From Nemertoderma westbladi (taxonomy: Eukaryota; Animalia; Xenacoelomorpha), in NCBI GenBank assembly GCA_032718475.1, contig JAUCBJ010004127.1, positions 1 through 64,000 of the forward strand: a DNA stretch of 64,000 bases, written 5' to 3'. The number at the start of each line of letters is the position of its first letter. Within the stretch, counting starts at the first letter, position 1. The notes under the pieces are model-generated. The model was not told where the DNA came from. It ran no database searches and saw only the letters and a program-made list of their open reading frames with translations. Made by a program: the position numbers and the translations under genes. Below, one piece after another: positions 22,901-55,768 of this stretch.

Positions 22901-25900
22901 GACATGTAGTTCGGAATCACTTACCTGACTCGGGCTGTTTCTTTCGAATTCAGTGTGCAACAAGAGATGATGTTTTGCGCCGCACTTCGCACACCTTGCG
23001 TCGGAGTAACAGGTTCGCCGTTGGTGTCCTTGTCTGAGGCAATTATAACACAACCGCTTATCCCACATGACTTCCCGTCTATCCTTTAATGATTTCTTTA
23101 GGAATTCATCACACACATTCAAACGGTGGGTCCCGTCACACAGCGCACATTTCGGTTTGATATTACTTACCTTATTTTGAGTAACGTTGTGCACACTCGT
23201 TCTTTCTTCGGGCTTTCTTACCTGAATTCTCTTAGGAGACGTAGGAGGAGTTTTTCTTACCTGTTCTCTCCTGTCATTGGTTTGAGACTTGAATTTACTT
23301 ACGTCTTTAGGCGTTTTATTGACATAATAAGATCTTTCAGTGTCTTTCCCGCTGTCTTCTTCTTGAGAAGCCTGGCTTTCGCCGTCGTCGGTATAACACA
23401 CTGGTGTTACCTTTCTCCTAGAAACGGGTTTCTCACTTACCTTGTTTTCCGGTGTCTTCTCTCTGGACTGCTTTAGGAGCTGTAATTTCACTTCTCCATC
23501 TAAGAATGACATGAGATCAGCCATGGTAGGGTCTCGTCGTTGTTGTTCCATCATATATAACACTTTCTTATCCCAGCGTGTGCCTACTCCACCCTTAGGT
23601 AAAGTAGAGGCCACGGCTCCAATAACCATAGAACTCTGATATTCATGAGACTTACCTAGCCAATCTAATTGTCTACAGATCTCCTGAATCTCATCGGAAA
23701 ACTCTATAATCCCGCTGCTAATGAATTTTCGGGGCGCTACCAATTTTGCATACAAATACCTAGCTATGTTATTCCTATTACCATACCTGATGTTTAGGGT
23801 ATCCCAAACTTGTCTTAATCCATCTGGATGTCCAATAAACTTTAACGCCATTAACTTGGGAGATCCTTCCAAGCACTCGATGAGGAATCTAAGTTTCTCT
23901 CCGTTAGATAGCACAGAGTTCTGTATGTTATCTTTGTAATATTCATTAAAAGGTAACCATTTCATCTCATCTCCATTGAACTTGACGATCTCTCCCACCT
24001 TTACCGCTTGACGGGCTTCGGTTCTAGCCATTTGACGCGTAAAACTTTCTTGGGCCATCGTATTATTTAATATCGAGTTATCGGTATATAAATTTCTCGG
24101 ATTATGATCAGGTCTATATGGAATATCATTGTCAACAGGTTTATAATTACCCTTAATAGGGTTTACTATAGGAGTTTCCACTTCACTAGCAGTATAGATG
24201 CGTGTAGGCTCCACACCTTGCGCATGAAATACTTCAGACCTAACAGGTTGACACATTGTTACAGGGGGTGGTGGTATACCCTTTTGGATATTTACTAATT
24301 TATCGCGTTCTAACGCGATACTTTGCTGCACTTCTTGCAACTCTAACCTACCCTCTCTAATTGTTCCCTTTAACTGCTGCACAGTCTCCCCCATCTCCTG
24401 GACCTGCTGAGAGGAGCAAGAACGGTGTTCCCTCAGCTGCCCGAGCAGGAGACCCATCTCCCGTCGTCCCTCATCTACCCACTCGACCGCCGAAGCGGGA
24501 GGCGCCAACGTTGTAGCGGGCGGACGAGGGACAACGGGCGACAAATCATTAATATTTCGCTCGGAGTCCAGGACATGAACATTTTCAGGGGTGGTTCTGT
24601 GGGGCACAGGTAGCTTAGTGCTGTGCAGAGGGAATTTAGAGGTAGGTTCAGGGAGTACAGGTGTCTCTATCACCGAAGGGGTGGCTTCGAGAACAGGCCT
24701 AATTATTTCAGGCTCATCTACTATAGTAGGGAGTCTTTCTATTTTAATTATTTGGTCTGTGGGTTCTGTACTACCTAAGTCTGTGTTAGTTAGTTGCCTT
24801 CTAACAGCTGGGGGCAAATCAGGCAATTTCTGACGGTGGGACATTCTTCTACGTCTGCTTAGACGAGATCTATTTCCTCCGCCTTCAGGATCGGTGGTAT
24901 CGCCTTCATCAGATGATGTATATCCCTGTCTTTTGGGAGTAGATCGACTCATCATCTGCATTTGACTAGCTGTTAACTGTTTATTTATGCAGTCTTGATT
25001 CTCTTGAATATTTTCCAACTCTAGTTGGGTGGTCTCTTCAGATGCTCTTCGTTCTGCTTCTGCCACTGCCTCTGCGCTTTTCTTTCCGCTTCTGCCGCTG
25101 CCGCTTTTCTTTCCGCTTCTACTGCTCGCTGCCGCTTTTGCCTCTGCCACTGCCGCTTTTATTGCTGCAGCTGCCGCTTTTCTTTCCGCTTCGTCCTGCT
25201 GCCAGCTGCCGCTTTTGCCTCTGCCGCTGCTCTGCCGCCTTTCTTTCCGCTTCTGCCCTGCCATTGCCGCTGCTGCTGTCTTTCTGTCCTCTATACGTTT
25301 TTTCTTGACTTGTTCTTCTTGGACCCTAGCGATGCGGAGGCTTTCATCAAATTTAGCTTGGTTCGCAGCTATCATATCCGCATCGATTGCGTCCAACACA
25401 AGCTTGGCTCCTTCACTATTAGGGCGAAGTCCAGACAGCCGTCTCCTCAACTCTTCGTCACCTACAAATCGTTGATAGTCTGACAGATAGATGTCAATAG
25501 CATCCCTCTTATGCGGTTTCTCTGCTGTCACTTCACTTTCCACTTGGGAAAAGGTAGCGTCTGTTGATTCTCCATGGGTTGAGCGCTCAGCCAGCTGAGA
25601 TTTCCACTGGGCAGTTCCTTGAACTTGGAGACTCACCCGCTGAAACCAAGTCTTTACGGCAACTTGCAACGACGTGTCTTGTCTTCTTTTCGAAGCCTCC
25701 TCAAAGGCCGATAAGATTAGTCTGATTCGTAGAATTCTTTCTCTAACTTGATAAAGCAGCTCTCCCTGCTCTTGAGGTCCTTGGGGTTGTCGAAACAGTT
25801 GTTCCTCTAATCGCTCCATAGAGCTGAAGAATCCCTGTACGTATCCTGCTGCTGACCTCTTCCACACAGCTGGATCGCTGGTTTCTTTTGTCACTCCCAT

Positions 25901-26455
25901 CCTGTGTATGTCTTCCCAGGCAGCTTCCGATAAGTCAAACGGGAGTCCGGGTCCGGGGAAGTTCCATTGCGACTCGACAATAGACTTCAGTTCTTCCCTT
26001 GTGTATCCCGCATAACTATCCTTGGTCGATCGCTTACTTCTCGCCCAATCAATCTGGTGTTCCTCCACCGCAATCAATACCCTAGTGAGTACGGCTGCAG
26101 GAAGGATGAGAAGGGGATCCGAATAAACCGCATCTGCCATCTTTGCTCCGCGCTCGGGTGTCAGCTCTACAGTATCCGCACTACTGGAGCTGTCGGGCCG
26201 CTGAGAAATAAGTTCTCGGCTCGAGTGTTGCTGCTGTTCCGCTGCTTCTTGGTCCCGCTTGACCTGAGCTCGAGTGCCTATGATAGACCTACGGTGTTGG
26301 ACTAGCCTAGGGTCTGATATTACTACTGGAGGGATGATCTTTCTTACAGTAGGAGGTGAGTTGAACTTCGGTCTCACACGTTCCACACTCCTGTCTGGGT
26401 CACAGATGGTTGTATCTAGGAGACTGTCTGACAGGTTTTGCTTTGTGTCAGACAT
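16975..26455 (-). pseudogene. A2 gag-pol polyprotein (originally ~2700 aa), with stop at 22511, frameshifts and a 1.3-kb insert
   Basis: Three BEL Cys-His boxes (CALCDGTH, CYNCLRQGH, CAKCGAKHHLLLH), ALLDSGS, YMDD, HVFGDAS, HHCC, GVDIFGP, SDKGTNF, GGSWERLI; the TAG at 22511 is TGG in A3. Confidence 0.95.
20879..22163. mobile_element. Unclassified ~1285-bp GC-rich insertion in A2 pol
   Basis: Absent from A3, where ...LER-LPKDQV... is contiguous (~49735); no TSD or TIR seen. Confidence 0.7.
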
Positions 26456-28391
26456 GTTTGTTTGTACAGTTGAATGCCTACTGCTATATTACAGTTAAAG
26501 CAAGTCTAGTAATTCAGTATCAACTGTTAGCCTAGTAATTAATTACCGATACTGTTACTCAGTGTAACGTGATATATATATATAATATATTAGAATACCG
26601 GTATACACTTATAGTATATATATAAGTATTATTACAGACTAGGTTTGTCACAGAATACCGGTATATAATTTCAGCGCAAATATATATAAATATATAATAG
26701 GCCTATCGTGAATACCGGTATACAGCTTACACTTATAGTATATATAAGTATAATTATGGACTAGAATTAATTACAGAATACCGGTTATAATTTCAGCCTA
26801 AATTTATAGAAATAAATATAATAAGCCTATTGTAAATACCGGTATGTCAATTATTTTAGAATAATTGAATTTCTGAATTTTAGGGGTTACTTGGTTACTT
26901 TACTTTACTTTATTACCGTTATTTAAGCAGTAGTCCAACTGATATTAAGACCTAATTGTTGTATGACAGGCCTACTATTTTATAAATCGGTTTGAGTTGA
27001 TTTATAATATATATACCCCTATAATGGGTTTTGTCAATATTTGAAATAAATGTTATTATTTCTGGGAAGGAGTCACTGCACAGAAGCTGTACGCTCTCAG
27101 TGAAGTGCTACTTGTTGGACACTAAAACAAATAATTCTAATTTACCTAAGTTACTTAATACTACAAATTACGTACAATTCGGGGTGAGATTACAATCTCT
27201 AAATAAACACAAAAATTACACGTACGAATTTTTAGGGTAATTTTACAAGAAGTCTACAAACCAGCCTAACAAAGGGTTAGAATATCTGGTTATTACAAAC
27301 AGACAGGATACTACGGTATTTGAAAATAACAAAGCAGTAGTAAATATACTGCGTTGTCCAGATAGGAAAAATACCACCGTCTGACGACTTATAGCCGTAT
27401 CGCTATAAGTACTACGTTATGTATCACGGAGTGTTCCTACCTAGAAGTTAATTACCGCGGTCTACCAGAACCAACGTGCCTATTAACCACTTTACAACAC
27501 AAATATACTGCCTACACACTAATTACCTTCGGAAAGCACTGTACACTAAACCCTAAATTAGGTACAAGTACTTATACAACAAATAATCAGCAGTTAGAAA
27601 TACTTGTACAGCTAAAAGAACCACGGTATCTGCTGGAGTGACCGGGGCACAAAATCACCAGTCTTTACCTACGCCAAGCAGCCCTGATGTAGTACCGGGG
27701 TTAATTTAACTATAACGGTATGTATAACAAGCACAATTACTGTAGGAATAAACTTGGGGATATGAATGTTGCGAATAATCGCATAAACTCTGAATAATAA
27801 ATATTACGCTACGCGTACAGACTACTCAAACAAAATACAGACCAAACGCTGGCAGACTACTATCAAGCCTAAACAAACTACAGTATATGCAGACTCCGAA
27901 ATGGTTAGTTAGTATGCGTTCTAACCGAGTAGTACGACTTATTCTTTCAGGGGGATTTACCTCACAGCACTGGAAGCCCCTACGTTCCTAACTAGTACTT
28001 TATCGGACATACACTCTACACACACCGCAATCTCTTCAGACCTAACAACAGCCAGACAACAATCCAGCCTACAAATTATCTAAATAAGAAATATTACGCT
28101 ACCCGTACAGACTACACAAACAAAATACAGACCAAACGCTGGCAGACTACTATCAAGCCTAAATAAACCACAGTATATGCAGACTCCGAAATGGTTAGTT
28201 AGTATGCGTTCTAACCGAGTAGCACGACTTATTCTTTCGAGGGGATTTACCTCACAGCACTGGAAGCCCCTACATTCCTAACTAGTACTTTATCGGACAT
28301 ACACTCTACACACACTGCAATCTCTTCAGACTTAACAACAGTCAGACAACAGTCCAGCTTACAAATTATCTGTACAATCTGGGCAGGCTTA

Positions 28392-30956
28392 CAGTCCCTA
28401 TCTCATTCTGAATATTATTTCTCAAACTGGGTATCATTTCTCAAACCTTTTACTAATGATAGTCAAGGGAGAATTTCAGTAGGTAAGACTGGGGTAAGAG
28501 TTGAGAAATCAGAAAGATGCAGCCAGCTCAATCTAACTCAAACTGGAGTCTGGCGCCATGGTTTGAGTTAGGTTGACTTCCAACTGTGCCATACTCAGCA
28601 TTACTCTTCCTGTACGGGATGGATAATTACTCTGGTTGAGTGAGGCACCACCACATGGGGAAGGGGCCTCTGTCTGTTGCTTGGGCTCTTGAGTTAATGG
28701 GTTGAATTACATAAGCTGGGCAGGCCGGCTTGCGCGTGTGTCTCATAAAAGACATGTCAATCACGCAGTTCCTTTGTGGGCTCTACTAAATGTATGTTGT
28801 TAACTAAACTACACTGGCTCGGTCTGTTTGTAGAGAAGTTTTAATTCTGGGAATATTGTTGTGGGAAATTGGTGCTCTGTTGTCTGTCTGTTTGATGTCA
28901 ATTGGTGCCTTACAAGACATATCAGTTTAAAAATCTAATGGTTAAATAAGAATTATTAGTGCATATGGGACCTCGGATTAAGCCTCATGCGAATTTAGTT
29001 CCAATGGAAACGAATTTAGTTCCAATTTAGGCGAACTTAGTTCCAATAACTGGAGAAAAACGAAAACGAATTTAGTTCCAATGGATGCGAATTTAGTTCC
29101 AATGGATGTGAATTTAGCTCTAATTGATGCGAACTTAGTTCCAATGCATGCGAATTTGGTTCCAATGGAAACGAATTTAGTTCCAATTTAGGCGAACTTC
29201 GTTCCAATAACTGGAGAAAAACGAAAACGAATTTAGTTCCAATGGAAACGAATTTAGTTCCAATTTAGGCGAACTTAGTTCCAATAACTGGAGAAAAACG
29301 AAAACGAATTTAGTTCCAATGGATGCGAATTTAGTTCCAATGGATGTGAATTTAGCTCTAATGGATGCGAACTTAGTTCCAATGGATGTGAATTTAGTTC
29401 CAATGGATGCGAACTTAGTTCCAATGCATGCGAATTTAGTTCCTCCAATGGATGCGAATTTAGTTCCAATGGAAGCGAATTTAGTTCCAAAGGGGCGAGC
29501 CACGTAGTTGGCGTAGAATCTGTTTAATGACACTATTAAGAGGCTGGTTAAACAATAATTGTAAATAACTAACCCAAAACGCCCAACCTCCTGACGAAAA
29601 CAATCTTATCCCAAACAACGCCCAAGCTCATAACCCAAACTACGCCCAACCTCCTAACCCAAACAACGCACATCCACCTAAACCGAAAGAACTAGTAAAT
29701 ATTGTATTTGTTGTGATAAATGGCACAATGTGCATGACTTGAGTATATAATACTACAGACTCAGTCAGTCAGTATCAGTATACTCGTCATTAATATATAA
29801 TTCAAAATGTGTAATTATACATTTAATAATAATTCGTTTTTTAAAAATGACGGAACGGTTTTACAATTATTTACAATTATTGTTGACCCTGACCCACCCC
29901 AAATATTGACAATACGCAATAGGCTTCGCCTACTACACGTGGCTATCCCCACGATTGAAACTTTGAAACTAAGTTTGTACCCATTGGAACTAAATTCGCT
30001 TCCATTGGAACTAAATTCGCTTCCATTGGAACTAAATTCGCATGCATTGGAACTAAGTTCGCATGCATTGGAACTAAATTCGCATGTCGCATCCATTGGA
30101 ACTAAGTTCGTTTTGATATTCTGGGAGTGATTGGAACTAAGTTCGCCTCGATTGGAACTAAGTTCGCTTTGTAAAATTTATTTTCGAACTAAATTCGTTT
30201 CAATTGGAACTAAGTTTGCCTTTGAAACTGTGCGATTGGAACTAAGTTTGTGCTACCGGGACCTCGCAACACCCACCCCCCCCCCCCCCCCCTCCCATAA
30301 ATATGGCCCTGTCTATAATTACAGAGGTTTCCTCTGGCCCCTTTGCCCGGTATACCCACCCCACACCCGGATGTATTGCGAATAATTGTGTTGACGATGT
30401 AATAGAGAATTAAACATTAGTAAAACATTAGTAAAACATTAAAGTTAAACATTAGAAACATTAGCGAAATATACGCGACATTAAATTAAATTTATAAAAT
30501 TGGTTGGTTATATTATATGGTTATATTTTAATGTAAAATAACGTTAATATGTTATGAGTCATACATACTTAATAAATGTAATAAAAAATTATTAAATCTT
30601 CAGTTTAATTAATTTAGCATATAATTTTTTTATTCTGAAATTTAAAAATAAATTGAGTCACTGAGTCTGCAACTTAATTCTCACGATCTACTGGAGTTAA
30701 TTACACACAAACAAATCAAGTTTAGGGAATGTTATAACACAGCAGGAGACCATCAAACCCGTAGGCAGAGTATAACAGAAACCATGGGCCATTAAACACA
30801 GACAGCTTGTTGTATGACTGCTACACAGTGCACAGTGGGTGGATATGCGAGTTTGAGTTGGGTTTGAGTAAACCAGACAGGTTTGAGTTAGTAAGAGTGA
30901 TGTAAGAGAAAAGGTACCCAGTTTGAGAAAGGGTATCTAGAATGAGATAGGGACTG
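28392..30956. mobile_element. Non-autonomous Tc1/mariner-type DNA transposon in the A2 leader
   Basis: TIRs CAGTCCCTATCTCATTCT / AGAATGAGATAGGGACTG; TA duplication; empty site in A1 (~3259). Confidence 0.88.
28976..30257. mobile_element. Foldback/Mutator-like non-autonomous insert
   Basis: 9-bp direct repeat GGGACCTCG at 28967-28975 and 30258-30266; arms built of 21-bp units (gcgaatttagttccaatggat) in opposite orientations. Confidence 0.7.
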
Positions 30957-31276
30957 TACACGTCTTCTGCTCAACATTAACCTACAAATAAATAAAACTG
31001 ACAGAAATAAGTAAAATCCCAATAAAAAACCAGGGCTGCAGTCCCTGATTAAATATTAAGGCCTACCGGTATATAATTATCAAAAATCGAATAATACTGC
31101 TTTACCTGTACTGCTGTAAGTACCGGTTCGGCTGGTTAGGTTGTTAGGCCTACTGGGTACCGGTTGACCGGTACTTCAGCTTTATTGCCTACTGCAATAC
31201 AGAAGCAATAACTGTTATTGTTCTTACCAGAACAATAGACAACTATATTTATTGCCTACACTGCAATCTGAAATCA

Positions 31277-31287
31277 ATAACTGTTAT
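31277..31287 (-). promoter_or_regulatory. A2 PBS position: ATAACAGTTAT, complementary to LTR-internal 32026-32036
   Basis: Abuts the LTR end; no TGG; exact 11-nt inverted match; duplicated at 31208-31218. Confidence 0.75.
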
Positions 31288-32475
31288 TGTTCACGCTTTC
31301 AGACCTTTAGCAGTTTAACCTGCCAAATTTAGATGTCTTCTAGATTATAAATCGACTTTAGCCTATGACGAGTATTTGATACACTACATTAGCCGAAGCC
31401 AGTCTATGCGCGACCATTCACCCGCTGGATATACCCGGGAGACTGGATGCGGAAGCTTTGACCTTATTGCGGTGTAGGCCCACTGTATTATTCGACTGAT
31501 TGTTAATATATAATTTCTGACAAATATTATTCACTTTCGGGAAATATCAACAGTTCCTTTAGGACGTGGCGCTCTAAATATGTAAACAGAGTTATGACTT
31601 ACACTAGACACAACGGGATGGCTATTGATTCACGTATAAAGCGCATTCTTTAGGAGATGCTTTGTTATCAGTCACAATCATGCACACTACCGCACAATGC
31701 TGCACACCGATCTGCCGACCTTCACTAATTTTAGTCACATATAAAGAGAACAGCAACCGACACATGTAGTGCCTATGAAATAGCAATAGATTCACTCCAA
31801 AACCAATATAATGTAAGTCGCAATTGCTATATGTAACCTGTCTCTTACCTTCAGTATATCAAGAAGATTGGGGGTTTTATGATTATTTATCAATATCTAT
31901 CCAAATATAATAATATTCCATCAACTGATATAATTAATAACCGACAGTAAATAGCAGTAAAAATGCGGTGTTTGTAGGTGACAATATGATTTGTGTTGAG
32001 TTGGTATGGTTTGATTTGTGGTTTGATAACAGTTATACGTTTCTATGACCAAAGCCTACTAATGTTTGGCTAAAGCATGAAACACAGAAATTCCAAAGCC
32101 GGTCTTCTGGCTGTGGACAAAATACACATACTGACTCAATTGCATGATTTTCTGTATACAATCTCCAACACAGAGTCAAAAAACGCTCTGATTGGTCGAC
32201 CGAACAAAGAACGAACAAAGAACAAAGAAAAAGCTACATGTGTACATATCAGCTGTCAGATGTCGTCATGGTAACTACACTGTATCAAGAGGATTTTGGC
32301 TTATTGCGACATAAGATCGCTAGTTATGTCCGCTAAAGTACACATACAGAAGAAATGGCTTTTTATGTCCACTAAAACACCGGTACAGTAAGGAAACGGC
32401 TTTTTATGTCCGTTAAAACACCTATAGAGTACTTTGCGGGGAAAATAACTAGCTAGATCCACAAAAGCCTTTACA
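31288..32475 (-). repeat. A2 5' LTR
   Basis: Sense TGTAAAGGC...GCGTGAACA; CCAAT at ~32190, TCAGT Inr-like motif at ~32132. Confidence 0.95.
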
Positions 32476-32480: not shown

Positions 32481-35039
32481 GCATGACCTGTTCTCGTCCA
32501 AGGGGTTCGATGTTCTTGTTCCTATTGGAGTATATTGTTGATATTGTGATGGGGGAATGTCACCCTGTCCCCCCCCACAGGTATGTTTGATACTGGGGTT
32601 GATGTTAATATATTGGGGCCCATGCACCTATCCGCAATAATTCTCCCTTCCCCTGGATATATGTTATGCCCTTGCATGCTGTAGTCATACTGCTGTGCTG
32701 GTACCGGTATAGGCCTATCCACTTCTGGCCTACCTACCGGTATGTACTCCGCGACTTCCGGGTTTAATCCCGTCGTCCATGCCACCCTATTGCCTACATT
32801 ATCTCTCCCAGCATGGCCTATGGTATGTGCAGTAAGGCCTACAGTATGTCCTGCAGTCTGTATGTGTCGCTCGGGATCGAAGTTTAATCTTCTCGAATAA
32901 TCCTCCTCGTGGTTACCGTATTCTCGATCGGTAGGTAGATCCCGTCGGGAAGTTTCTCTTCAACCCCCTCTACTGTTCTCGTCCTTCACTTCTACACCCC
33001 TCTCTAGTCGACACACTAACCCTAATGCGACTGGGTCTATTCACCCCCGCCTCTCCCTCTACTACTGTGTGGCCTACCAGGCCCCCCTCGGGTTGACTCA
33101 AGCCCGCCACTTCCTGCCTACTAACTACGCGGCCTACCAGGCCCCCTTCGGGTTGGCTCAACCCCGCCACTTCCTGCCTACTGACTACGTGGCCTACCAG
33201 GCCCTCACTTGCCGGGCTACGCACGTCCGCCTCGTTCATATTAATAGCACCATTCCCAATATTATCTGTTAAATCAATTAAATCTTCTAAATCATTTAAA
33301 TTATTTGAATTAATAGAATTTGAAACAGGATTATTATTTAAATTATTTTGTGTATTTAAATTTAAATTATTTGAATTATTTTGCGTAATTATATTATTTG
33401 AATTATTTTGCGTAATTATATTATTTGAATTATTTTGTATATTCGGGTTTAGACTATTATTTAAATTATTCGGACTACTTTGTACATTTATATTAGAATC
33501 GTTCGGATTTAAATTACTACTGTCGGGCAAAATATTATTTCCTGCAATGAAAGTTTGGTTAGAATTATCCACTACGGTACTATTAATATTAACGTCATCT
33601 ACTGTATTATTATTATTACCCCCCCCCCCCCCGGCCCCGCCCGTACGGTCACACCAGTCTTGGGTCTGTCGTCTGGTCCCTGTAAGTGGGGTATTAATAA
33701 ATGTTTCCCTAACTCCTGGCTCCTCGTAAATACTACTCGAGCCAGCCTCGCTCTCTGACAGCCCCATCTGCGCCAGTTCTAGTCGGCGCTTCTGTTTGGC
33801 TTGATATTGAATAAGCCCCTTTAGGCAGGCATGCAAACCATCCTGCACACGTTTTCCCTCTATCTCCCTCTCTATTATGTCCTCGCGTAAACTCTGATCG
33901 GCTAACTCCGCCTCTCTCACAACTCTCTCCAGTCGTCTCGCCTCGCGCTCTTTTCGCTCACTCTGCTCTCTCGCCTCACGCTCTTTACATTCTTTCTCCT
34001 CTCTCGCCTCACGCTCTTTACGTTCACCTTTACGCTCGCTCGCCTCTGCCGCCTCTCGCTCTTCTTGCTCCTTCCTTTCCATCCTCCCTATTTCCTCACA
34101 CTCCTTAAAGCTTCTCGCGACCTTCTCGGCCCTCTCTCTATTCTCTCTAGCCAGTTCTTTCTCCTTCTCTAGTAACGCACACCCCTCCTCTAACTGTCTC
34201 TCTAATTCTCTCTGGTCTAGCGCCGCCAGATCGAGTTGGCACACTAGATTTATTTCTAACACCCGTCTTTCTTTTGCGGAGGATGTAGCAGACTTATCGG
34301 TCGTGACGGACTCCCGTCGCCTTCCCGTCCTACTAACTTTCCCCCGCCTTCCGGAATTTCCTCCGACTGACGAGACCGAATCCTCGGGGTTATCCTCGGA
34401 TTCGCCCTCCTGCGGTCTCCTCCAACCCACTAATTTTATTCCCCGGGCATCGACTAAGTATGGCCCTATGTACACTACACCAGGCTCCATACCCCTGCAT
34501 TCCCACAGTTCAAACAGTTCGGTGGCAACCCCTCTCGCTCTCTCATCGGCTAGTTCTCCCTGCCCAAAGCGCATTAAGTAATCAAAATGTTTGTTCGACT
34601 CACCTAGCCACTTCTCTAACTTCACCTGGTCTATCTTGGCCCCTCCTTTGGCTTCTCTTAGTTGCTTTCGGGTCGCGGTGTAGGCTAGTCGGAGCCGGTC
34701 GCTAACCCCGACGTCCTCGTCGCCGACGTCTCCTCTATCCCTCCGTGTCCAGCGTCGTACCGGCGGCCCCACCGTCGCCGTTCCGGTGGGCAGTCCGTCG
34801 CCCTCGGCCTGTGGCTGGCCGGCGACATCGGCACGTCGACCGCCGCTGTGTGTCGACTCGTCTCTCTCCTCTCTCGACTCGTCCGCTCGTTGTAGACGGC
34901 CCCCCTCGGTTTGGATCGCCGGATCGCATATGGTCGACGAATCCGGCGTCGTGGGTCGGTACCGTCGCGTCGCGGCCTCGCGGATCGTTAGGTCGCCATC
35001 CGGGGTCCGCGGCGGTGTCGTCTTTCCTTCTCGACTCAT
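32481..35039 (-). pseudogene. Family B gag N-terminal extension (coiled coil, Asn-rich tract)
   Basis: 689-aa ORF starts 67 bp after the 5' LTR; E/R/K-rich repeats; frameshifted continuation up to the A2 TSD. Confidence 0.8.
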
Positions 35040-35097
35040 GGTTGGCAGTCAGTTTCGGGTCGTTGGTCTTTTAATACTTCTCGGGCAGCTACTAGTA

Positions 35098-35106
35098 TCT
35101 TATCAC
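35098..35106 (-). promoter_or_regulatory. B PBS position: GTGATAAGA, complementary to LTR-internal 35325-35333
   Basis: Abuts the LTR end; no TGG; imperfect pairing extends over 35083-35109 versus 35322-35348. Confidence 0.75.
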
Positions 35107-35696
35107 TGTGATGGGATCCGAGAATCCCGATTTATCCGGTGTCTTATCTACGCGTCCCCGCCTTGCGTGTGTGAAAAGAGTTCTGGGGTTGTTGACTGAT
35201 CGGTATGTATAAACATATAGCGTATAATATAGTTGAATGAAGTATAGCACAGTTGATTGATTTAACAGTTGATTAAATGTACTGGTAAATAACTGAATGA
35301 TGGTGGTGGCAGTAGATGGAGACAGTGATAAGAGTTCCGGTACTGCCCTAACTAACTGACTTACTAAAGTGAATGAAATGACACAATAACTGGTAATATA
35401 TTGCACTAGTTGGCCGTATTACATTACTCAGTGGATGCCTTCCCCCCATTGGCTAATAACTCACTTCTCGCCCTCCCATCTCTCTGGGAGTGTTTCCCCC
35501 TGCTACTGTCACTCTCTCCCTCCTGGAGGTGTAACCTCTGACCCCCGCTGTGTGTGTGTCCCTTTGGGGTTTGTCGCCCCGTTTATTGGGGTGATACGAG
35601 GTTGATTGGCAATCAACCTCGTACTCCCAATATTGCTTAAAGCTCTTGCTTGGCCAACTTTGTGTGGGGTGGTTAGCGGAATTGAATACGCTAACA
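35107..35696 (-). repeat. Family B 5' LTR (590 bp)
   Basis: Sense TGTTAGCG...CCCATCACA; TSD follows. Confidence 0.95.
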
Positions 35697-37374
35697 GAAG
35701 GGAAATGGTGCCCGTGTGAGGGTGTCTACAGCCCCCTCCTGTCTGGAATTGTAAGCACGAAACGCATGGCTGTTGTGCTTTAATGCAGCCACATTTGCCG
35801 GAGACACAGCATCCACAACAGCATGGTAATACCGCACTGACAGCACCGCTCAGCAGCACGCTATCTAAACGATCCTGTCTAACTCACTCCCAATCCTTTG
35901 ATAACCAGTTATACCCCAGATGCAGTGCTCAGTGCAGTACAGTCGTTACGTATATCTACCACTCCAGTTACCTAACAAAAATGGTCTTAAAATGTTCTGA
36001 TATATTTTGGTGTTTGCCAAAAAATTTAATAAAATATATTATTATTTTAAAAATTTGTCGACTTATAAAACCAGTCCGGTTTGGCAAAATGTAAAACTGA
36101 ACCTTGATATTCGTTGTCAGAGACCTCGAATAAACTAAATGCTGTAAAATGTTTTCTAACGATTTCGAGACGATTTAGTGTTTACGGAACAAATTTTGAA
36201 ATTATGTCAATATTCTCGAAATTTCGTTGCCTATAAAAGACTGACTATACAGTAGGTAGAGAGGCAAAACTTACTTGAAAAGCGGAATCAGCGACCGCAA
36301 ATTAACTAAACAAACGATTTCAGCCGATTCCGAGAAAAAAAAACGATTTTGAACTCTAAAAATCTGAAAAAACCGCTGGGGATAACCGCTGTAGATATAA
36401 AACCCGAAAATAATAATCAAACAATCTACAGTACAAAATCTCGCTTTCAGTAAGATATAGTAGGCCTAGGTATTATTAGAATGCACACTTTACATTTTTT
36501 AATCAATAAAATCCGATAACTTCGCCCCATTTTCGACCTTTAAATGTTATTTAATACCAAATACTGTCTGCTGGTTGGTTGTTACTGTAGTTGTTGAGCA
36601 ATGGCGGCTTAGATGAATCAACTCAGCATCAGCAGAACAGTGTAGGGGCCTACTGGTGTTAGTAATGTATTACAATCAAGGTACAGTCTGAAGGGGCAAA
36701 GTTGAAGGAAGCGGTCCGGTGAGTCAGGCAGATTGGGATTTTGTGGAGCCAGTTAAAATCCCGGTGTCACAGGCGAAAATGTTGAAGGAATTTTGAAAAA
36801 AATCAATAAGGGCCGAGCTACGAAACTTTGAAGTATGCTTCGAGGGCCCAAGTGGACCCAAATTCTGGGACTTTAAAAAGTCGTTTTTGTGGAAAATAGT
36901 GTTAAGCGATTTAGTAGAGAATGAAGGGTTATTCTTTCCTAAATGCCAGATGATTGGGTTTCTCGAGATATTTCGCTTCGAATATCGGGTTTTTTTGTGA
37001 GTCGCAAATATTCGCCCCCACTTTTCAGGAGAAAAACTCTCTCGAATCAAAAATCAGTCGGAATAGTTACTACCTGTCTATTAAAAAAAGTTGTTGCAAG
37101 GTCGTAGCTCCGATTATAAAAAAATAGCGTGGAATGCCGTTTTTCCATTTTTGCGCATTTGCGATATTTACAATTATTGCGACTTCGTTTATTGCAACTT
37201 CCCGACCGCTTTCGAAAAAAGTGGTTGATATTTCTGCCAGAGCTATCTTTCCTCTATCCAACAACGAAAAAATCGTAATAAAATCGGAATATATTTTTCA
37301 TTCTCTATACACCTCCAACGAGGTAAAATAACACTATTATCACATATAATTATAGCATAATACTGTACATATAG

Positions 37375-40320
37375 TCACATATAGTTATATACAATCACAT
37401 ATAGTTCAATTATTAATACAGCAAATAAGCACAGGGAATAGGAGCACAAATAGTATTTAGTTCGACATAAGTTATGTATTTGCAAGTATGGGTATTGGCG
37501 GGCATGCGGCACATTGTAGAACATCGCTGTGTGAAATATCGCTGTCGCTGATATCGAGATATCGCTATCGTGAAAGTGTGTGGAAAGGCTTTTCGTTTGT
37601 ATAGAGTTTATGGTGAAAACCGCGAGCGGTCGTCCTGGCAATGATGTGTCGGTTTGTCTGTTTGGCCAGTTTCCATGTAGATGTAGTAAATGCCTGTCCC
37701 ATTTCGTAGAGTTCAGAAAGAAAATTGTTTTCTCGGTCCTGTCTAAATTCATGGAATTTTTCAAGTACACCAGTCACCAGTGTCAAAAATGGTTGGATAT
37801 TTTAGTAAAATGTCAGAAATGAATGTTTTCTCCCTGAGTAGGTGCAGCGCCAACGTCGATGAAGCTGATATATGTAGACCCAGCATTCTCTTTATGTGTG
37901 TTGTTTTAATTAGGGCTCTTTCCTTTAGGTGTGATAGCTTAAGAAAACGAGCGAATATTGGAAAGGCATATAGGGCAATGGGGGCAATTTTCATGTGAAA
38001 TATTCTTAGACCTGTTTCAATGGAAACGAGCTGCAAGTTTTTTATTGATGCAATAATCCTATAGCACTTTTTCTTTTTCGATTTTATTTGTTCACTGAAG
38101 CTGAGTGAAGTTTGTACTATTACCCCCAGATATTCATACTGGTTCAGATTGGTACGGTTTGACCCCTGCAAGTAAAGTTATCAGTGCAAGCTACTGTAGG
38201 TGCCCTCCTTTGCGAAATTTAATTATCTTTGTCTTGTCCATATTAATTTCCATATTAACTTCCATATTTTTGTTTATACACCAGGTGTGAGTTATGTCTA
38301 GAGCGTTTTCAATTGCCTGTTTGTCCGTTGAATAAAAAACAAGATCGTCCGAATAGAACAAGAACTTTAAGTGTGTAATTGCCTGACGTAACATAGTTGC
38401 CAAGTCAGCGATAAATATAATAAAACACGTGGGCGAAAAGCAGTCTCCCTGTAGTATGCCTTGGTACTGCATAATTTTGTCGGTGATGCAAAGCCCATCG
38501 AAAATATGAATATAGTTAAATTGTAATAAATCCTTGATCACGTCAAACAGTTTACCTTTGATGCCAAAGTCATAGATTTTCGACAGCAGAATCGCTCGGT
38601 GTACAAAATCAAAGGCTTTACGAAAATCAATGAAGCAGATGTATACTTTCCTATCCTCTCGGTTAGCTGGTTGTAAGGCTGTGGCTATGAATGTAAGTAA
38701 GATTTGTATGGCGTGGGAACAAGATCTGCTAGGTCGGAATCCGAACTGCTCGTCAAGAAAAAGTTGTGAAACAAACAAACCTACACGAGTATTGATTATG
38801 GAAGTAAACGTTTTTAACAGAACTGAAATCAAGGCGATTCCCCTACAGTTATTGGGGTTGTTTATTGCTCCGTTCCCTTTGTAAAGAATCATAATGAGGC
38901 TTTCATTCCAAAGAAGCGGTATCCGTCCTAAGTTGAGGCACGCGTTGTATAAAGTCACTAGTATCATTAGGGTAAACGGCATTGTTAATTTAAGATGCTC
39001 GTAGTAAATCCCATCTAAACCATTGGCTTTCCCATTAGCGGAATTATTAATGCTGGCTGTAATTTCATCTTCTGTTATAGGCGAGTTAATAAAATATGCG
39101 ATTAAAGTTTTGATAATGATGTATGGAGCAGCTTGCTTGATGCTGGAAGGATTTAAATGCGATTTGCATAAATCCATAAGATCCCCCGATGGACATCCCC
39201 TAGTTGGTTTGACAGCTGCCTCCGAGAAGCAGTAGTATAATTAGTGGTGATGTGAGACATCAGTGTATAGAGTTTCAGTCAGGAGCACAACATCTGCGTT
39301 GCCATAAAGTTCAGAGTCAGTCAGAGTGTCTGCTAAATATCGAAGTCCCTCCACATTCAAACACATACCTTTGTGCTCCGATCCTAGTCACTGTTGCTAA
39401 TATCCGTATTCCTTCGTGTATTTCCTCCATACGTGTTACCGGAACTCTCGCGTTGTTGAAGACGCAACTCCTTTCGGTCTTGTTCACTGAGTCGATAGTT
39501 GCGGATAGTGATTCCGGTCATCCACAACACCGGGTTCATGACTTCCTCGCGATTTTTCTGGTTACATATGATATGAAAGCTCTTGAACATCGAGGTGCCA
39601 TCCTTCAGTGTTAGCTCGTTGACATCCTCAAAAGTAATATTTTCACCCCTGAAGAAACCGGCAATATCTTCCTTCGTTGTTTCATTGTGTAAGCGGCTGA
39701 TGTGAATGTGAGCTCATCCACCATTTGCGGGTTCCACTGGTGCTGCAGCGTGGAGAAGGCCATCCGCCCTACTTCCCCGAACTAAAGGCCGTGGTTGGTA
39801 TACTGACTGGTGGATATCGTTTGCGTGTGCGAATTGGTGGTGTTGTTTGGTGGAGTTTGACATGTAGTTGGAGTTTCCAACTGAACTTTGGCATCGATCC
39901 GAGTCCGAGGCAGCAGCAACGGACGCAGGGGTGCACCATGCAGCGTCGCGGCCACGAGAGTCCGCCCCGGCGTTTCCACTTCCCCGAACAGCGTTGCTGT
40001 AAGGACGGCGAGTGGGATATACGGATGGCAGGTGTGCGGTGCGTTTCCTTGTGGTTGGTGTCGGCTGTCACCATCCCTAAGAAACTCTAGCAGCTCATTC
40101 TTTGCTGCCAGCGTTTCCTTGCGAGCATCGGCAACATCCTTCCTCATTTCGGCCAGATCACCTAATGAGGCTGTGTACAATGAACCTAGCGCCATAAGCC
40201 AGTCCATTAACTGTTTCTCGTCATCGTTTGATGTACTTTTCTTGTGGCGGATTGTTCTAATAATAGACAGAATGTTGTTCTGGATTGCAGTAAAGCTGTC
40301 AGATTCAGATTTTCATGGCG
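37375..40320 (-). mobile_element. Degenerate LINE (L2/Crack/Daphne-like): ORF1 remnant, partial endonuclease, RT
   Basis: RT motifs QFGFRP, FIDFRKAFD, LQGDCFSP, YSDD, YEYLGV; endonuclease start DVVLLTET; ORF1-like HISRLH...SFHI...NPVLW.TGITIR. Confidence 0.8.
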
Positions 40321-40689
40321 TTATTTATCGGTAGAGGCAATCAATACATAACCAATGCTAAAAGCTCAACGCCTAACTGGTAAATGCAGGTTGTACTGTA
40401 ATTGGGCAAGTGTAATTGTAAATTAACAATTATTAGTTCTCTGAAAGCCATTGAAAGTGCGGATTATCTCATAAAAGTAATGAATGATGCATGCTGCAGC
40501 AATGCAGCATGATGCCGATTGTAGATAGATTATTTATTATCATACTGAAATACACAAATGCACAAAGTCCAGAGGAACGCCTCTGGATCTGATAATAACT
40601 ACACACAATAATAAATAGTATGTAAAAAAAACAACTAGATAGATTTACATATTTTCAATAATAATTATTATATATTCAGACAATTTTTA

Positions 40690-41404
40690 ATGATGAGTCG
40701 AAAAGTGATACGGATTTGTGTTACAATTATTATTACCATTGTAATCTTAAACTTTTCGCATGATGTAATGGTGATAGTTGATGACAGAGCACCTCTTCGA
40801 AGTAGGATAATTAAACTTTCAATGGAGAAAAACCAAACCTTATTAAACAATGAAAAAGTGTACACTACAAATTCTACGAAACAACCAGTTGATAGATTTA
40901 TTATAGAGAATCCCAGGGCGTGCCATAATATTACAAACGGTAACCCAAGTTTTATTATCCTTCAACTTATAAAAACGCGACCGTCATCTACAGAAAAACG
41001 ACTCGCTATTCGCGAAACATATGCAACAAGAAAAGTAATCAATGGTACCAACATAAAGCACTTGTTTGTATTGGGTTATCAGCCAGAATTTCAACAAAAA
41101 ATTATAAATGAAAATTTCATATATGGTGATATAGTGATATTTCATTTCGAGTGATCTACTTTTTCCTCTACTAATTCTCGTCCCATTTCATCCATTAATA
41201 TCTGTGGACGACGCTTATACTGGGATTCTAATGGCTTCCATTCTGATTGAACCCACATACATTCGTAACATAGACGTTTTTGGTGAAATGAGTCATACAT
41301 TTAATGCCTCAGTTTGGGATAGAGTTATTGCGACCCATAGCTACTCAACCCAAAACTTTAAATTATATTGGAAGTGGTTGTTGGAGGGTTACGCTAAGGA
41401 CTGA
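40690..41404 (+). pseudogene. Beta-1,3-galactosyltransferase (GT31) pseudogene, central domain deleted
   Basis: N-terminal TM anchor, KRLAIRETY, LFVLG, ENFIYGDIV; then out-of-frame junction at ~41150 to SDLL...ISVDDAYTG...IATH. Confidence 0.8.
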
Positions 41405-42417: not shown

Positions 42418-42750
42418 GAGCTCGGCTCGGTCTGGCACGATTGTGCTCGATTCAGTTCGACTTGGCTTGATCGGCTCGGTTTGGCTCGATTGGGCTCGAC
42501 TCGGCTTGATTGGGCTCGACTCGGCTCTATTGGGCTCGACTCGACTCGATTGGGCTTGACTCGGCTTAGTCTGGCTCGACTCTGCTTGATTGGGCTCAAC
42601 TTGGCTCCGTCCGGCTCGACTCGGCTCGATTGAACTCGACTCGGCTTGATTGGGCTCGACTCGACTCAGTCCGGCTCAATTTGGCGTGACACGGTTCGAC
42701 TCGGCTCGATTGAGCTCGGCTCGGCTCGGTCTGACTCGACTCAGCTGAGT
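42418..42750. repeat. Pentameric (CTCGR/CTTGR)n simple repeat
   Basis: ctcggctcgactcgattggg... 5-bp periodicity. Confidence 0.85.
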
Positions 42751-43259
42751 CTGGTGGTGCAACTGTTGTACTGTAATACAGTAATAAAGCCTGTTGACCA
42801 GCAATTTGGCCGAAAACGACTACAGAATAGCCCAATTTGACCACAAATATGCATCCACAAAGGGCATATACAGGCATCTGGGCTGAGCATATGCATAAAA
42901 GTATTATACAGTATATAAAAATGTAGCTTCGAGATAATGACGGTTCACGTTCACACGTGCTTAGACCGATATGCATCACGTAGACGTACAAGATAAGCCC
43001 CAATGTGTAGTGCAGTAGCGCAGCTGCAGACTGAACTGCTAGGCCTACCACGAGCCCCACATCAGCGACCATGAATTAAGCTTTCACGCAAACAAACGTG
43101 TAAAATAAAACCCTGAGACAGTGACAACTGTTTGCATCGTGTTAATACGCATCGAATGAGCCATAAAGCAAGGAATGAGAGCGAAATCTGACGACGTGTA
43201 TCGATGGACATACATATGTACAAACTGAGCAGATTTATATATATTATTACAGTAGATAG

Positions 43260-43299: not shown

Positions 43300-45481
43300 T
43301 CACAAGCCTATTCAGCATTCCAAACATTAATTAATTAATTAATCACTTCCAAAGGATTACAAATTGTAAAAATATGGAAGAAGGTTAAACTGTAGAACTG
43401 CAGGTCGTTACCATCCTCGTAAACACAACCTACTGTATAGTTTAGGGACTGCCAATAATCAAAATGGGAGAAGGATTTCACTTTCAGACAATTCGTCCCC
43501 TATAGTCGCGGAATGGAAAACTGTGGACTGGTCAACGTCCTTCACAAAGATGTAGCCTTATGATGTACATACATTAGTACAGTAGACCTCTGACAATTAG
43601 CAACCTAAAAGCATTTTTAATAAGTAGCTGTAGGCCTAACTACCTAACCACCCGAACCGGTACTTACCGGTACTAGTATTATTTCAATTGTGATATTGTA
43701 TATTGGTAGGCTGTTTAAGAGAGTAGGGACTGTACAGTGTACACCCCTTATTTCTTTTGGAGCTTATTTATTTCTGTCAGTTTTATTTATCTGTAAGTGT
43801 AATATTGAGCAGAAGGCGTGTAAGCCCGCTCAAATTGTACAAATAATTTGTAGGCTGGATTGTTGTCTGGCTGTTGTTAGGTCTGAAGCGATTGCAGTGT
43901 GTGTAGAGTGTATGTCCGATAAAGTACTAGTTAGGAAGGTGGGGGCATCCAGTGTTGTAAGGTAAATCCCCCCCGAAAGAATAAGTCGTACTACTCGGTT
44001 AGAACGCCTACTAACTAACCATTTCGGAGTCTGCATATACTGTGGTTTATTTAGGCTTGATAGTAGTCTGCCATCATTTGGTTTGTATTTTGTTTGTGTA
44101 GTCTGTACGGGTAGCGTAATATTTATTATTCAGAGTTTATGCGATTATTCGCAACCTACATAAATTCCCCAAGTTTATTCCTACAGTAATTGTGCTTGTT
44201 ATACATACCGTTATAGTTAAATTAACCCTGGTACTACATCATGGCTGTTCGGCGTAGGTAAAGACTGGAGATTTTATACTTTGGTCACTCCGGCAGATAC
44301 CGTGGTTCTTTTAGCTGTACAAGTATATTTAACTGCTAGTTATTTGTTGTATAAGTACTTGTACCTAATTTAGGGTTTAGTGTACAGTGCTTTCCGAAGG
44401 TAATTAGTGTGTAGGCAGTATATTTGTGTTGTAAAGTGGTTAATAGGCACGTTGGCTCTGGTTGGCTGCGGTAATTAACTTCTAGGTAGGAACACTCTGG
44501 GTACATAACGTAGTACTTATAGAGCTGTAAAGCTAGAGACTATAAGTCGTCAGACGGTGGTATTTTCCTATCTGGACAACGCAATATATTTACTACTGCT
44601 TTATTATTTTCAAATACCGTAGTATCCTGTCCGTTTGTAATAACCAGAAATTCTAACCCCTTGTTAGGCTGGTTTGTAGATTTCTTGTAAAATTACCCTA
44701 AAATTTGTACGTGTAACTTTTGTGTTTATTTAGAGATTGTAATCTCACCCCGTAATTGTACGTAATTTGTAGTAATAAGTAACTTAGTAAATTAGAATTA
44801 TTTGTTTTAGTGTCCAATACAATAAGTAGCACTCCACTGAGAGCGTCTAGCTTCTGTGTAGTGACTCCTTACCTAGAAATAATAACATTTATTTCAAAAT
44901 TGACAAAAACCCATTAAAGGGTATATATATTATAAATCAACTCAAACCGATTTATAAAATAGTAGGCCTGTCATACAACAATTAGGTCTTAATATCAGTT
45001 GGACTACTGCTTAAATAACGGTAATAAAGTAAAGTAAAGTAACCAAGTAACGCCTAAAATTCAGAAATTCAATTATTCTAAAATAATTGACATACCGGTA
45101 TTTACGATAGGCTTATTATATTTATTTCTATAAATTTGAGCTGAAATTATATACCGGTATTCTGTAATTAATTCTAGTCTATAATTATACTTATATACTA
45201 TAAGTGTAAGTTGTATACCGGTATTCACGATAGGCTTATTATATATTTATATATATTTGTGCTGAAATTATATACTGGTATTCTGTGACAAACCTAGTCT
45301 GTAATAATACTTATATATATACTATAAGTGTATACCGGTATTCTAATATATTGTGTATATATATCACGTTACACTGAGTAACGATATCGGTAATTAATTA
45401 CTAGGCTTATAGTTGATACTGAATTACTAGACTTGCTTTAACTGTAGTTCTAGCAGTAGGCATTCAACTGTACAATCAAAC

Positions 45482-48400
45482 ATGTCTGACACAAAACAAA
45501 CACTGTCAGATAGTCTCTTAGAAAGTGCTAGAATGAGTGTTAGCCAGGGTCTTAAAAAGATCTGGGACTCAGCTAAGAGTATAGAACGTCTGAGACCAAA
45601 GTCCAAGTCCCCTCCTACTGTAAGCAAGGTCATCCCTACAGTAGTAGTGTCAGACCCTAGGCTAGTAGAACACCGTAGGTCTATCATAGGCACTCGGGCT
45701 CAAGTCAAGCGAGACCAAGAAGCAGCTGTTAAACAGCAGCAACACTCGAGCCGAGAACTTATTTCCCAGCGGCCCGATAGCTCCAGTAGTTCAGATACTG
45801 TAGAGTTGACACCCAAGCGCGGAGCAAAGATGGCAGAAACGGTTTATTCGGATCCACTTCTCATTCTTCCTGCAGCCGTACTCACTAGGGTATTGATTGC
45901 GGTGGAGGAACACCAAATCGATTGGGCGAGAAGTAAGCGATCGACCAAGGACAGTTATGCGGGATACACAAGGGAGGAACTGAAGTCTATTGTCGAGACG
46001 CAATGGAACTTTCCCGGACCCGGACTCCCGTTTAACTTATCGGAAGCTGCGTGGGAGGACTTATACAGGATGGGAGTGACTAAGGACACTAGTGATCCAG
46101 CTGTGTGGAAGAGGTCGGCAGCCGGATATGTACAGGGATTCTTCAGCTCTTTGGAGCGATTAGAGGAACAACTGTTTCAACAACCCCAAGGACCTCAAGA
46201 GCAGGGAGAGCTGCTTTATCAAGTTCGAGAAAGAATTCTAAGAATCAGACTAATCCTATCGGCCTTTGAGGAAGCTTCGAAAAGAAGACAAGACACGTCG
46301 TTGCAAGTTGCCGTAAAGACTTGGTTCCAGTGGGTGGGTCTCTAGGTTCAAGGAACGGCCCAGTGGAAATCTCAGCTGGCTGAGCGCTCAACCCATGGAG
46401 AATCAACAGACGCTACCTTTTCTCAAGTGGAAACGAAGCGACAGCAGAGAAACCGCAGAAGAAGGACGCTATTGACATCTATCTGTCAGACTATCAACGA
46501 TTTCTAGGTGATGAAGAGTTGAGGAGAAGGCTGGCTGGACTTCGTCCTAATAGTGAAGGAGCCAAGTTTGTGTTGGACGCAATAGATGCGGAAATGTTAG
46601 CTGCGAACCAAGCTAAATTTGATGAAAGCATCCGCATCGCTAGGGTCCAAGAAGAACAGGTAAAGAAAAAACGTATAGAAGACAGAAAGATAGCAGCAGC
46701 GGCAGCGGCAGAAGTGGAAAGGAAAGCGGCAATGGCAGCGGCAGAAGCGGAAAGAATAGCGGCAGAAGCAGAAAGAAAAGCGGCAGAAGTGGAAAGGACA
46801 GCGGCAATAGCAGCGGCATAAGTGGAAAGGAAAGCGGCAATGGCAGCGGCAGAAGCGGAAAGAAAAGCGGCAGAGGCAGTGGCAGAAGCAGAACGGAGAG
46901 CGTCTGAAGAGACCACCCAACTAGAGTTGGAAAATCTTCAAGAGAAGCAAGACTACATAAATAAACAGTTAACAGCTAGTCAAATGCAGATGATAAGTCG
47001 ATCTACTCCCAAGCGACAGGGCTTTACATCATCGGATGAAGGCGATACAACAGATCCTGAAGGCGGAGGAAATAGATCTCGTCCCAGCAGGCGTAGAAGA
47101 ATGCCTCACCGTCAGAAATTGCCTAATCTGCCCCCAGCTGTGAGAAGGCAACTAGCTAGCACAGACTTAGGTAGTACAGAACCCACAGACCAAATTATAA
47201 GAGTAAAAAGACTCCCTACTATAGTAGATGAGCCTGAAATAATTAGGCCTGTTCTCGAAGCCACCCCCTCTGTGATAGAGACCCCTGTACTTCCAGAACC
47301 CAACTCTAAATTCCCTTTGCACAGCACTAAACTACCTGTGCCCAACAGAACAGCCCCTGAGACAGTTCCTGTCCTGGACTCCGAGCGAGATATCAACGAT
47401 TTGTCGCCCGTTGTCCCTCGTCTACCCGCTACTATGTTGGCGGCTCCCGCTTCGGCGGTCGAGTGGGTGGATGAGGGACGGCGGGGGATGGATCTCCTGC
47501 TCGGGCAGATGCAGGAGACTGTTCAACAGTTCAAGGGAACAGTAAGGGAAAGTAGGTCAGAGTTGCAAGAAATGCAGCAGAGTATCGCGTTAGAACGCGA
47601 TAAATTAGTAAATACACAAAAGGGTATACCACCACCCCCTGTAACAATGTGTCAACCTGTTAGGTCTGAAGTATTTCATGCGCAAGGTGTGGAGCCTACA
47701 CGCATCTATACTGCTAGTGAAGTAGAAACTCCTATAGTAAACCCTATTAAGGGTAATTATAAACCTGTTGACAATGATATTCCATATAGACCTGATCATA
47801 ATCCGAGAAATTTATATACCGATAACTCGATATTAAATAACACGATGGCCCAAGAAAGTTTTACGCGTCAAATGGCTAGAACCGAAGCCCGTCAAGCGGT
47901 AAAGGTGGGAGAGATCGTCAAGTTCAATGGAGATGAGATGAAATGGTTACCTTTTAATGAATATTATAAAGATAACATACAGAACTCTGTGCTATCTAAT
48001 GGAGAGAAACTTAGATTCCTCATCGAGTGCTTGGAAGGATCTCCCAAGTTAATGGCGTTAAAGTTTATTGGACATCCAGATGGATTAAGACAAGTTTGGG
48101 ATACACTAAACATCAGGTATGGTAATAGGAATAACATAGCTAGGTATTTGTATGCAAAATTGGTAGCGCCCTGAAAGTTCCTTAGCAGCGGGATTATAGA
48201 GTTTTCCGATGAGATTCAGGAGATCTGTAGACAACTAGACTGGTTAGGTAAGTCTCATGAATACCAGAATTCTATGGTTGTAGAAGCCTTAGCATCAGCT
48301 TTGCCAAAGAGTGAAGTAGGTACTCGCTGGGACAAAAAGGTTCTCTATTTGATGGACCAACAACATAGAGATCCAACCATGACGGACCTTCTGTCATTCT

Positions 48401-52009: not shown

Positions 52010-52640
52010 AACCCCAGTAGGGGGTGAGACAGGCAGCCGGTCAGGAATTAACTGACGCCTGTGAGGCCGATTCTGTTCGGTAATTCCACTGGCCTCTAGT
52101 GGCCGGACCTCAGCATTGCTAATGTAATACATAGTGGGGGTTGGGGGGTGCTTTTTTGCCGAGTCAGCTCTCGGGGCAAATACCACACCCTGGTTTGCCA
52201 TTCCACAGGGTGGGTGTCGCAATGGAGTCAGATATGAGGCCCATCACCCATATCTACTCTGGCGCACATGACCCACCATTGGCTGTTGCAGCTCATCTGC
52301 TGGGTCATGCCCTGTACCCTTGCTGCCAGGTGCAGGTCGCAGTGAAGTGCTCTCAGAGTGGACATGAGAACACTCTACTCCTGACCAGCCATTGGTAGAT
52401 CACCATCTGCCTGGTCAGGCCATATACCCCTGCAGCCAAGTATATGGGTCCTTAATCCAGGACCAAGGGCGTCCTTATCCCAGAACGAAGGGGGTCCTAG
52501 TTACAGGACCAGATTTGCCCTAGTAAGAGGGTCTATACAGCTACAGGTGGCACCTCCTTTATGCTGCATGGAGGTGGCAAGTTTTCTTGATCAATGACCT
52601 AGAATACCTGACCTGACCATACCTGACCACACCAGACCCC
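52010..52640 (-). mobile_element. Hairpin-dense segment, possibly the 5' UTR/ORF start of an RTE-like LINE, inserted in the A3 3' UTR
   Basis: Not in A2; about 10 consecutive stems followed by ATG MYYISNAEVRP... Confidence 0.35.
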
Positions 52641-55709: not shown

Positions 55710-55768
55710 AACTGGAGAAAGATCACCAGCGTTTCCCCTACAAGACGTGCGTCTTTGGTATTATTACG

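Follow-up and report, generated by a model that had tools for sequence, protein, structure and literature searches.

A candidate two-helix self-primer at the LTR edge of a BEL/Pao retrotransposon in Nemertoderma westbladi

How does an LTR retrotransposon with no tRNA-type primer binding site (PBS) begin reverse transcription? The question is raised by element B, found in a 64,000-nt stretch of Nemertoderma westbladi DNA that was analyzed as a whole (the window), whose leader is complementary, from the first base after the 5′ LTR, to a segment of its own LTR. The ICTV profile of the Belpaoviridae assigns this family a PBS of 18 nt, complementary to tRNA-Arg or tRNA-Gly, and a host tRNA as primer, and calls its replication poorly understood (PMC8742986). 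Self-priming has been described for the Tf1/sushi group and predicted for the plant elements Tcn1 and TAR (PMC6317226, PMC4600332, PMC5341516). Tf1 pairs the initial 11 nt of its RNA with the PBS, and an RNase H cut separates base 11 from base 12 (PMC7175516), the primer being set within a three-duplex pretzel (bioRxiv 10.1101/2022.12.06.519325). For BEL/Pao elements, we found no account of self-priming in the openly available literature, to which subscription journals, Repbase Reports, GyDB, and supplements may add a mention. A term look-up in the available text of four BEL/Pao surveys (PMC3118150, PMC554778, PMC6238403, PMC8556966) returned no mention of PBS, priming, or tRNA, and the available text of PMC8220671, PMC3601003, PMC13524379, and PMC3286476 contains none of BEL/Pao self-priming.

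Element B is a BEL/Pao LTR retrotransposon on the minus strand (Table 1). Its domains follow a gypsy-like order (DUF1759, aspartyl protease, RT, Peptidase_A17/RNase H, integrase, DUF5641; Pfam), the acidic motifs of RNase H are visible in the alignment, and PF05380 is present in all 120 of the 120 matches listed in a protein search with B Pol, the closest match among the longer proteins searched sharing 34% identity. Pfam gives BEL/Pao domains and no chromodomain, which sets B apart from the Tf1/sushi group; the N-terminal part of gag (32970-35048) has no Pfam match. In domain content and order, LTRs, polypurine tract, 5-bp target-site duplication, and length (about 10.6 kb without the nested insert), B resembles the Belpaoviridae, and it has the LTR of 0.2 to 1.2 kb with TG...CA ends, the polypurine tract, and the target-site duplication of the family profile; in contrast, the tRNA-Arg or tRNA-Gly PBS and tRNA priming of that profile are absent in B (PMC8742986). 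The class assignment rests on proteins, the tRNA PBS being a descriptive trait of the profile. The two B LTRs are 96.6% identical. This copy is dead, its RT region being disrupted by a stop codon and a frameshift and its catalytic motif degenerate. The family is multicopy and diverse, with 1,833, 1,076, 1,103, and 27 contigs matched in four DNA runs, and two scans of viral contigs found no relative.

The window is a nest of BEL/Pao elements. Inserted in the gag of B is a family-A element (A1), which is younger than B; a second family-A copy (A2) lies nearby, and broken family-A copies or LTRs occupy 43630-58082 (plus strand) and 58056-59624, 62446-64000, and 20-4760 (minus strand). The window also holds a fragment of a non-LTR-type reverse transcriptase (38191-39240, minus strand; RVT_1, E 8e-30), a galactosyltransferase-like fragment just below the Pfam cutoff (40639-41154, plus strand), and tandem arrays with units of 55 nt (53459-55033), 10 nt (42421-42790), 21 nt in both orientations (28969-30219), 51 nt (6719-7151, in the B 3′ UTR), and 158 nt (60242-60915).

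Table 1. Coordinates in the window of the features of element B and of its family-A neighbors.
Feature	Position	Strand	Details
B 5′ LTR	35107-35696	-	590 bp, TG...CA ends
B 3′ LTR	5141-5732	-	592 bp, TG...CA ends
B target-site duplication, 5 bp	35697-35701 (left, element sense); twin 5136-5140		Direct reading
B polypurine tract abutting 3′ LTR	5733-5741	-	Direct reading
B gag, N-terminal part	32970-35048	-	692 codons, split by family-A insertion
B gag, capsid part	11532-12545	-	DUF1759, Pfam E 5.8e-11
B nucleocapsid, protease, RT start	9952-11646	-	Pfam
B RT end, RNase H (Peptidase_A17), integrase	7883-9820	-	Pfam E 1e-39
B integrase end	7271-7870	-	DUF5641, Pfam
B PBS core	35098-35106	-	9 nt from first base after 5′ LTR
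B PBS middle	35089-35097	-	Unpaired or weakly paired internal loop, variable between copies
B PBS distal clamp	35083-35088	-	6 nt, GC-rich, in register with core
Candidate self-primer, 3′ segment	35325-35333	-	LTR positions 364-372; cut predicted at 35325/35324
LTR partner of clamp	35343-35348	-	LTR positions 349-354
24-nt primer segment, copy in B 3′ LTR	5361-5384	-	
Promoter-like motifs upstream of primer	35393-35452	-	CCAAT at LTR 245, TATA-like at LTR 297; motif scan
U5 hairpin	35113-35128	-	6 bp, ends 6 nt before PBS; predicted, -7.5 kcal/mol for last 40 nt
A1, family-A BEL/Pao element nested in B gag	12519-32475	-	LTRs 98.9% identical, 5-bp target-site duplication
A1 PBS	31277-31287	-	Pairs with LTR 32026-32036
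A2, second family-A copy	3507-4760	-	5′ LTR 3519-4760; PBS 3507-3518 pairs with 4283-4294
Family-A second helix, A1	About 31254-31267 with 31465-31480		
Family-A second helix, A2	About 3487-3501 with 3693-3711		

The original prediction held that the 24 nt following the 5′ LTR (35106-35083) pair with the LTR of B (complement from 35325, and from 5361 in the 3′ LTR) through nine perfect base pairs at the LTR edge, a bulged or wobble middle, and a 6-bp GC clamp. The sequences and coordinates are exact, and so are both helices: in ungapped pairing, PBS positions 1 to 9 form nine Watson-Crick pairs with LTR positions 372-364, and positions 19 to 24 form six with LTR positions 354-349 in the same register, while the 9-nt middle (positions 10 to 18) offers one Watson-Crick and two G-U pairs. 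The 24-nt LTR segment is identical at 24 of 24 positions between the two LTRs of B. A comparison with dinucleotide-shuffled LTRs found the match rarer than chance, with a core of at least 9 in 67 of 20,000 shuffles and a core plus a distal run of at least 6 in 0 of 20,000; at other registers of the B LTR, a distal run of at least 6 occurs at 2 of 559. Co-folding of the 5′ LTR with the leader, a check that the prediction had proposed, gave pair probabilities of 0.95 to 0.99 for the core and 0.98 to 1.0 for the clamp under all four assumed transcription starts. Substituting the 3′ LTR copy left the clamp at 0.99 and the core at 0.43, and the fold of B is therefore sensitive to a few letters.

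No TGG occurs in the first 60 nt of the B leader, which thus has no tRNA-type 18-nt PBS, and the 64-kb window contains no tRNA genes or Rfam families; two sub-threshold Rfam matches near the primer site are at chance level. The CCAAT and TATA-like words upstream of the primer, together with initiator-like words at LTR 316-343 (motif scan), suggest that transcription would start upstream of the clamp. A perfect donor-like GTAAGT stands at LTR 333 (35359-35364), 9 to 16 nt upstream of the B primer arm. It has no usable acceptor before the primer; splicing to an acceptor near LTR 403, if it occurred, would remove the primer and separate mRNA from genomic RNA. Two further candidate pairings in B were set aside: a third helix of 8 bp between LTR 336-343 and the leader at 35047-35054, which is weak and post hoc (146 of 5,000 shuffles), and a 7-nt U5 decoy for the primer, which is at chance level (129 and 291 of 1,000).

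Other copies of B were read from contigs, of which run X2 supplied 182 over 35030-35375; the variants given for this run come from 40 of its 41 variant rows. Its PBS differences fall at 35091 (five of five contigs), 35094 (one), and 35096 (two), all three in the loop and none adding an in-register pair (five contigs cover the loop), and the covering contigs have no core or clamp variants in the PBS among those listed. On the LTR side, 35325-35348 varies at 35328 (core, 10.6% of contig depth) and 35337 (loop, 4.5%); the former has no PBS partner among the X2 variants listed. Conservation of the clamp is thinly based, since only five contigs cover the PBS loop, and its LTR-side partner is not singled out by conservation because all of 35338-35375 is invariant. 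In single contigs of runs X2 and X3, the gag-proximal leader is joined to 35098, with the 9-nt core kept and a different sequence beyond it. In other contigs (X2, X5), the match begins at 35105, and these may carry a different PBS with its partner out of view.

As to whether the match recurs in other B copies, then, the PBS core is common to them and the clamp is common to the few that are readable, while no compensatory PBS/LTR change was seen within family-B contigs. Base 35324 differs from this 5′ LTR both in the 3′ LTR and in all covering contig depth (four of four runs), so the proposed extension to 12 bp through the terminal ACA holds for this 5′ LTR only; because the base is private to it, the family-wide duplex ends exactly at the LTR edge. 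Of the roughly 24-nt duplex that was proposed, the 9-bp core and 6-bp clamp stand but not a continuous helix, for the middle, though weakly paired as foreseen, is a variable loop in which all three X2 PBS differences lie. The 9-bp core is firm, and the 6-bp clamp is significant but read in few copies and without covariation in B.

Covariation is found in family A, where A1 forms 11 perfect PBS:LTR pairs (18 of 20,000 shuffles) and A2 forms 12 (9 of 20,000). The two PBSs differ at 4 of 11 positions, each matched at the gap-free homologous LTR site, and these four compensatory changes are the strongest covariation in the window. Pairing resumes in register after a short mismatch, with distal runs of 4 in A1 and 6 in A2 (58 of 1,157 and 7 of 1,211 other registers, respectively), and the layout of core, loop, and clamp thus recurs; between A1 and A2 the distal runs show two double changes and two wobble-neutral changes. 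In family A, the leader immediately beyond the PBS can also pair with U5 to give a second long-range helix (6 and 13 of 500 shuffles, post hoc), whose location is homologous in A1 and A2 and whose letters differ; the A2 distal run overlaps it. The A1 leader contains, at about 31180-31225, a degenerate second copy of the LTR end and PBS some 70 nt downstream of the first.

We also searched for the trait among relatives, using 78 BEL/Pao loci from one metagenome scan. Primers built across a splice junction were examined because several candidate partners followed an acceptor-like AG. A strict test was applied to the 19 of 78 loci with an intact open reading frame of at least 1,400 amino acids and enough upstream DNA. 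Five of them (L018, L019, L020, L034, L066) have a PBS match of at least 10 nt (10 to 14 nt) across a GT-AG junction in the LTR, compared with 1 of 570 shuffles. Four more (L039, L041, L049, L056) came from a looser test of 15 loci, with matches in the same length range; these had failed the strict filter and are scored as misses in the strict test. The predicted introns of these spliced-type relatives span 37 to 530 nt. In all nine, as in B, the primer ends in AC and the site starts with GT, and eight of the nine lack a distal run of at least 4, L049 being the sole exception. No splice-junction match of the PBS was found in the LTRs of B, A1, or A2, and contiguous matches of at least 9 are not clearly enriched among the relatives (3 of 19, versus 36 of 570 shuffles). 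In two loci (L011, positions 61-78; L007, positions 23-40), the LTR end is followed after 5 nt by a TGG-type PBS, which we take to be tRNA-Tyr-like. Their branch also holds the spliced-type L066 (support, 97.6), suggesting that the priming mode has switched more than once.

Whether B is an instance independent of A, as originally proposed, has two answers. By sequence it is: blastn (E up to 1, word size 7) found no match between the A and B LTRs, in line with the dissimilarity first noted, and identity over RT end, RNase H, and integrase is 28%. By origin it need not be, for self-complementary primer sites occur across the sampled BEL/Pao relatives and the trait may be shared by descent. Of the trees made for the proposed phylogeny, one, built from 146 sequences and 967 columns, grouped A and B at 0.91 and two left them ungrouped, one of the latter being built on 32 chosen rows; all three consist of BEL/Pao sequences without a non-BEL outgroup or named clade references, both elements sit on very long branches, and the placement of B is unstable. 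An A+B clade is not stable over the three trees, and we treat A and B as separate lineages.

That B primes its own reverse transcription in some form is, in our judgment, very probable. The geometry argued for originally, with the 3′ end of the LTR-derived strand exactly where minus-strand synthesis must start, is upheld: the duplex is anchored at the first base after the LTR, takes the place of a TGG-type site, exceeds chance, and covaries in family A. We favor, with fair but lesser confidence, a primer formed by a long 5′ arm of the RNA of B that includes core and clamp and is cut after LTR position 372. The transcript would start upstream of LTR position 349, giving a primer arm of at least 24 nt, and in the particle the RNA would fold so that LTR 364-372 pairs with the 9-nt site, likely steadied by the clamp. 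A cut after LTR 372, probably by the element's RNase H, would then free the priming 3′ end, with the 5′ rather than the 3′ LTR copy serving as primer. During plus-strand synthesis, about 9 primer bases at most would as a rule be copied back into the PBS, or else any longer copies would be purged. Copying of the full arm at plus-strand strong stop would tend to make the loop complementary; because the loop stays noncomplementary and variable, copying presumably stops at around 9 nt, or its longer products disappear. The clamp, for its part, would be kept by selection on RNA structure and not by copying.

By analogy, B likely works like Tf1 without belonging to the Tf1 group. Like B, Tf1 and Tf2 of Schizosaccharomyces pombe, Tj1, and the Tf1/sushi group, as described in the accessible sources, have no tRNA site and a PBS beside the 5′ LTR that is complementary to their own LTR RNA, and in both Tf1/sushi elements (Ty3/gypsy chromoviruses) and B the primer would be released by a cut at the end of the paired segment. 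They differ in superfamily (Ty3/gypsy for Tf1, BEL/Pao for B) and in core length (11 nt versus 9 nt). The Tf1 primer consists of the initial 11 nt of the transcript, while pairing in B extends upstream in register via the loop and the 6-bp clamp. Helices like the two that flank the primer in the Tf1 pretzel were not detected in B (161 and 64 of 300 shuffles were as good); family A has a single candidate, its second helix, which resembles one arm of the pretzel. The counterparts in B of the Tf1 cut and start site are predicted from sequence alone. Prediction of the same kind underlies self-priming in TAR (Houba/Osr-1; Ty1/copia) and Tcn1, which like B fall outside the yeast group; unlike B, these are plant copia and gypsy elements, and no two-helix primer is described for them in the available text (PMC6317226).

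A closer copy of the Tf1 scheme, in which transcription begins with the 5′-most base of the 9-nt core or close to it and a short capped oligomer is the primer, would make the clamp either the relic of a single copying event that ran too far or a sequence that pairs only with the 3′ LTR copy. The clamp does stand in exact register with the core, as a remnant of a once-perfect 24-nt copy would, and most spliced relatives lack one. We nevertheless consider this unlikely, as such a relic should decay evenly along its length but the observed differences sit in the loop, in-register distal runs recur in A1 and A2 (the A2 run overlapping another helix), and no TATA-like word lies 30 nt upstream of LTR 364. 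Quite unlikely, too, is self-priming from the 3′ LTR copy, by an RNA 3′ end that is processed at LTR 372 and folds back on the PBS. The same 24 nt are present in the 3′ LTR, and the clamp sequence would be there whatever the start site; but the only AATAAA of the B LTR is at position 110, with no ATTAAA, the CCAAT and TATA-like words precede the cut by 75 to 127 nt, the spacing to be expected of a primer near the 5′ end, and the literature searched yielded no published precedent.

Could the duplex instead be a structural or regulatory element (for packaging, translation control, or circularization), with a host RNA such as a tRNA fragment as the primer? In favor of this, the ICTV profile describes tRNA priming for the Belpaoviridae (PMC8742986), Ty1/copia elements include cases of half-tRNA priming (PMC6317226), and self-priming in B is itself a reading of its letters. 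Against it, B, A1, A2, and nine relatives all have a helix beginning on the base that directly follows the LTR, a position required by a primer alone; A1 and A2 could not differ at 4 of 11 PBS positions if they relied on a fixed host primer; and no Rfam family matches the site. We regard a host primer as very unlikely. Chance complementarity in B is hardly credible, for although the core is short when taken by itself (0.3% of shuffles) and was sought once the family-A pattern was known, core and clamp together never arose in the shuffles, and the same layout is found in A1, A2, and relatives.

The long-arm model for B makes a definite prediction, namely one RNA 3′ end at LTR 372 together with a start upstream of 349. 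A wider reading, which we hold with slightly more doubt than confidence, is that tRNA-free self-priming is normal in much of BEL/Pao and comes in a splice-built form, common among the sampled relatives, and an intron-less form, A and B having a long 5′ primer arm, with two in-register helices around a loop, that is cut at the LTR edge and has only its first 9 to 12 bases copied back, an architecture not described for Tf1. If this is true, PBS-based annotation tools would overlook such elements, whose primer sites would be out of reach of silencing by tRNA fragments. It would also bear on the order in which hairpin and tRNA priming arose (PMC3601003). Should B, A, and their relatives indeed self-prime, the tRNA-primed entry would be wrong for much of the Belpaoviridae (PMC8742986), and self-priming would occur in all three LTR retrotransposon superfamilies.
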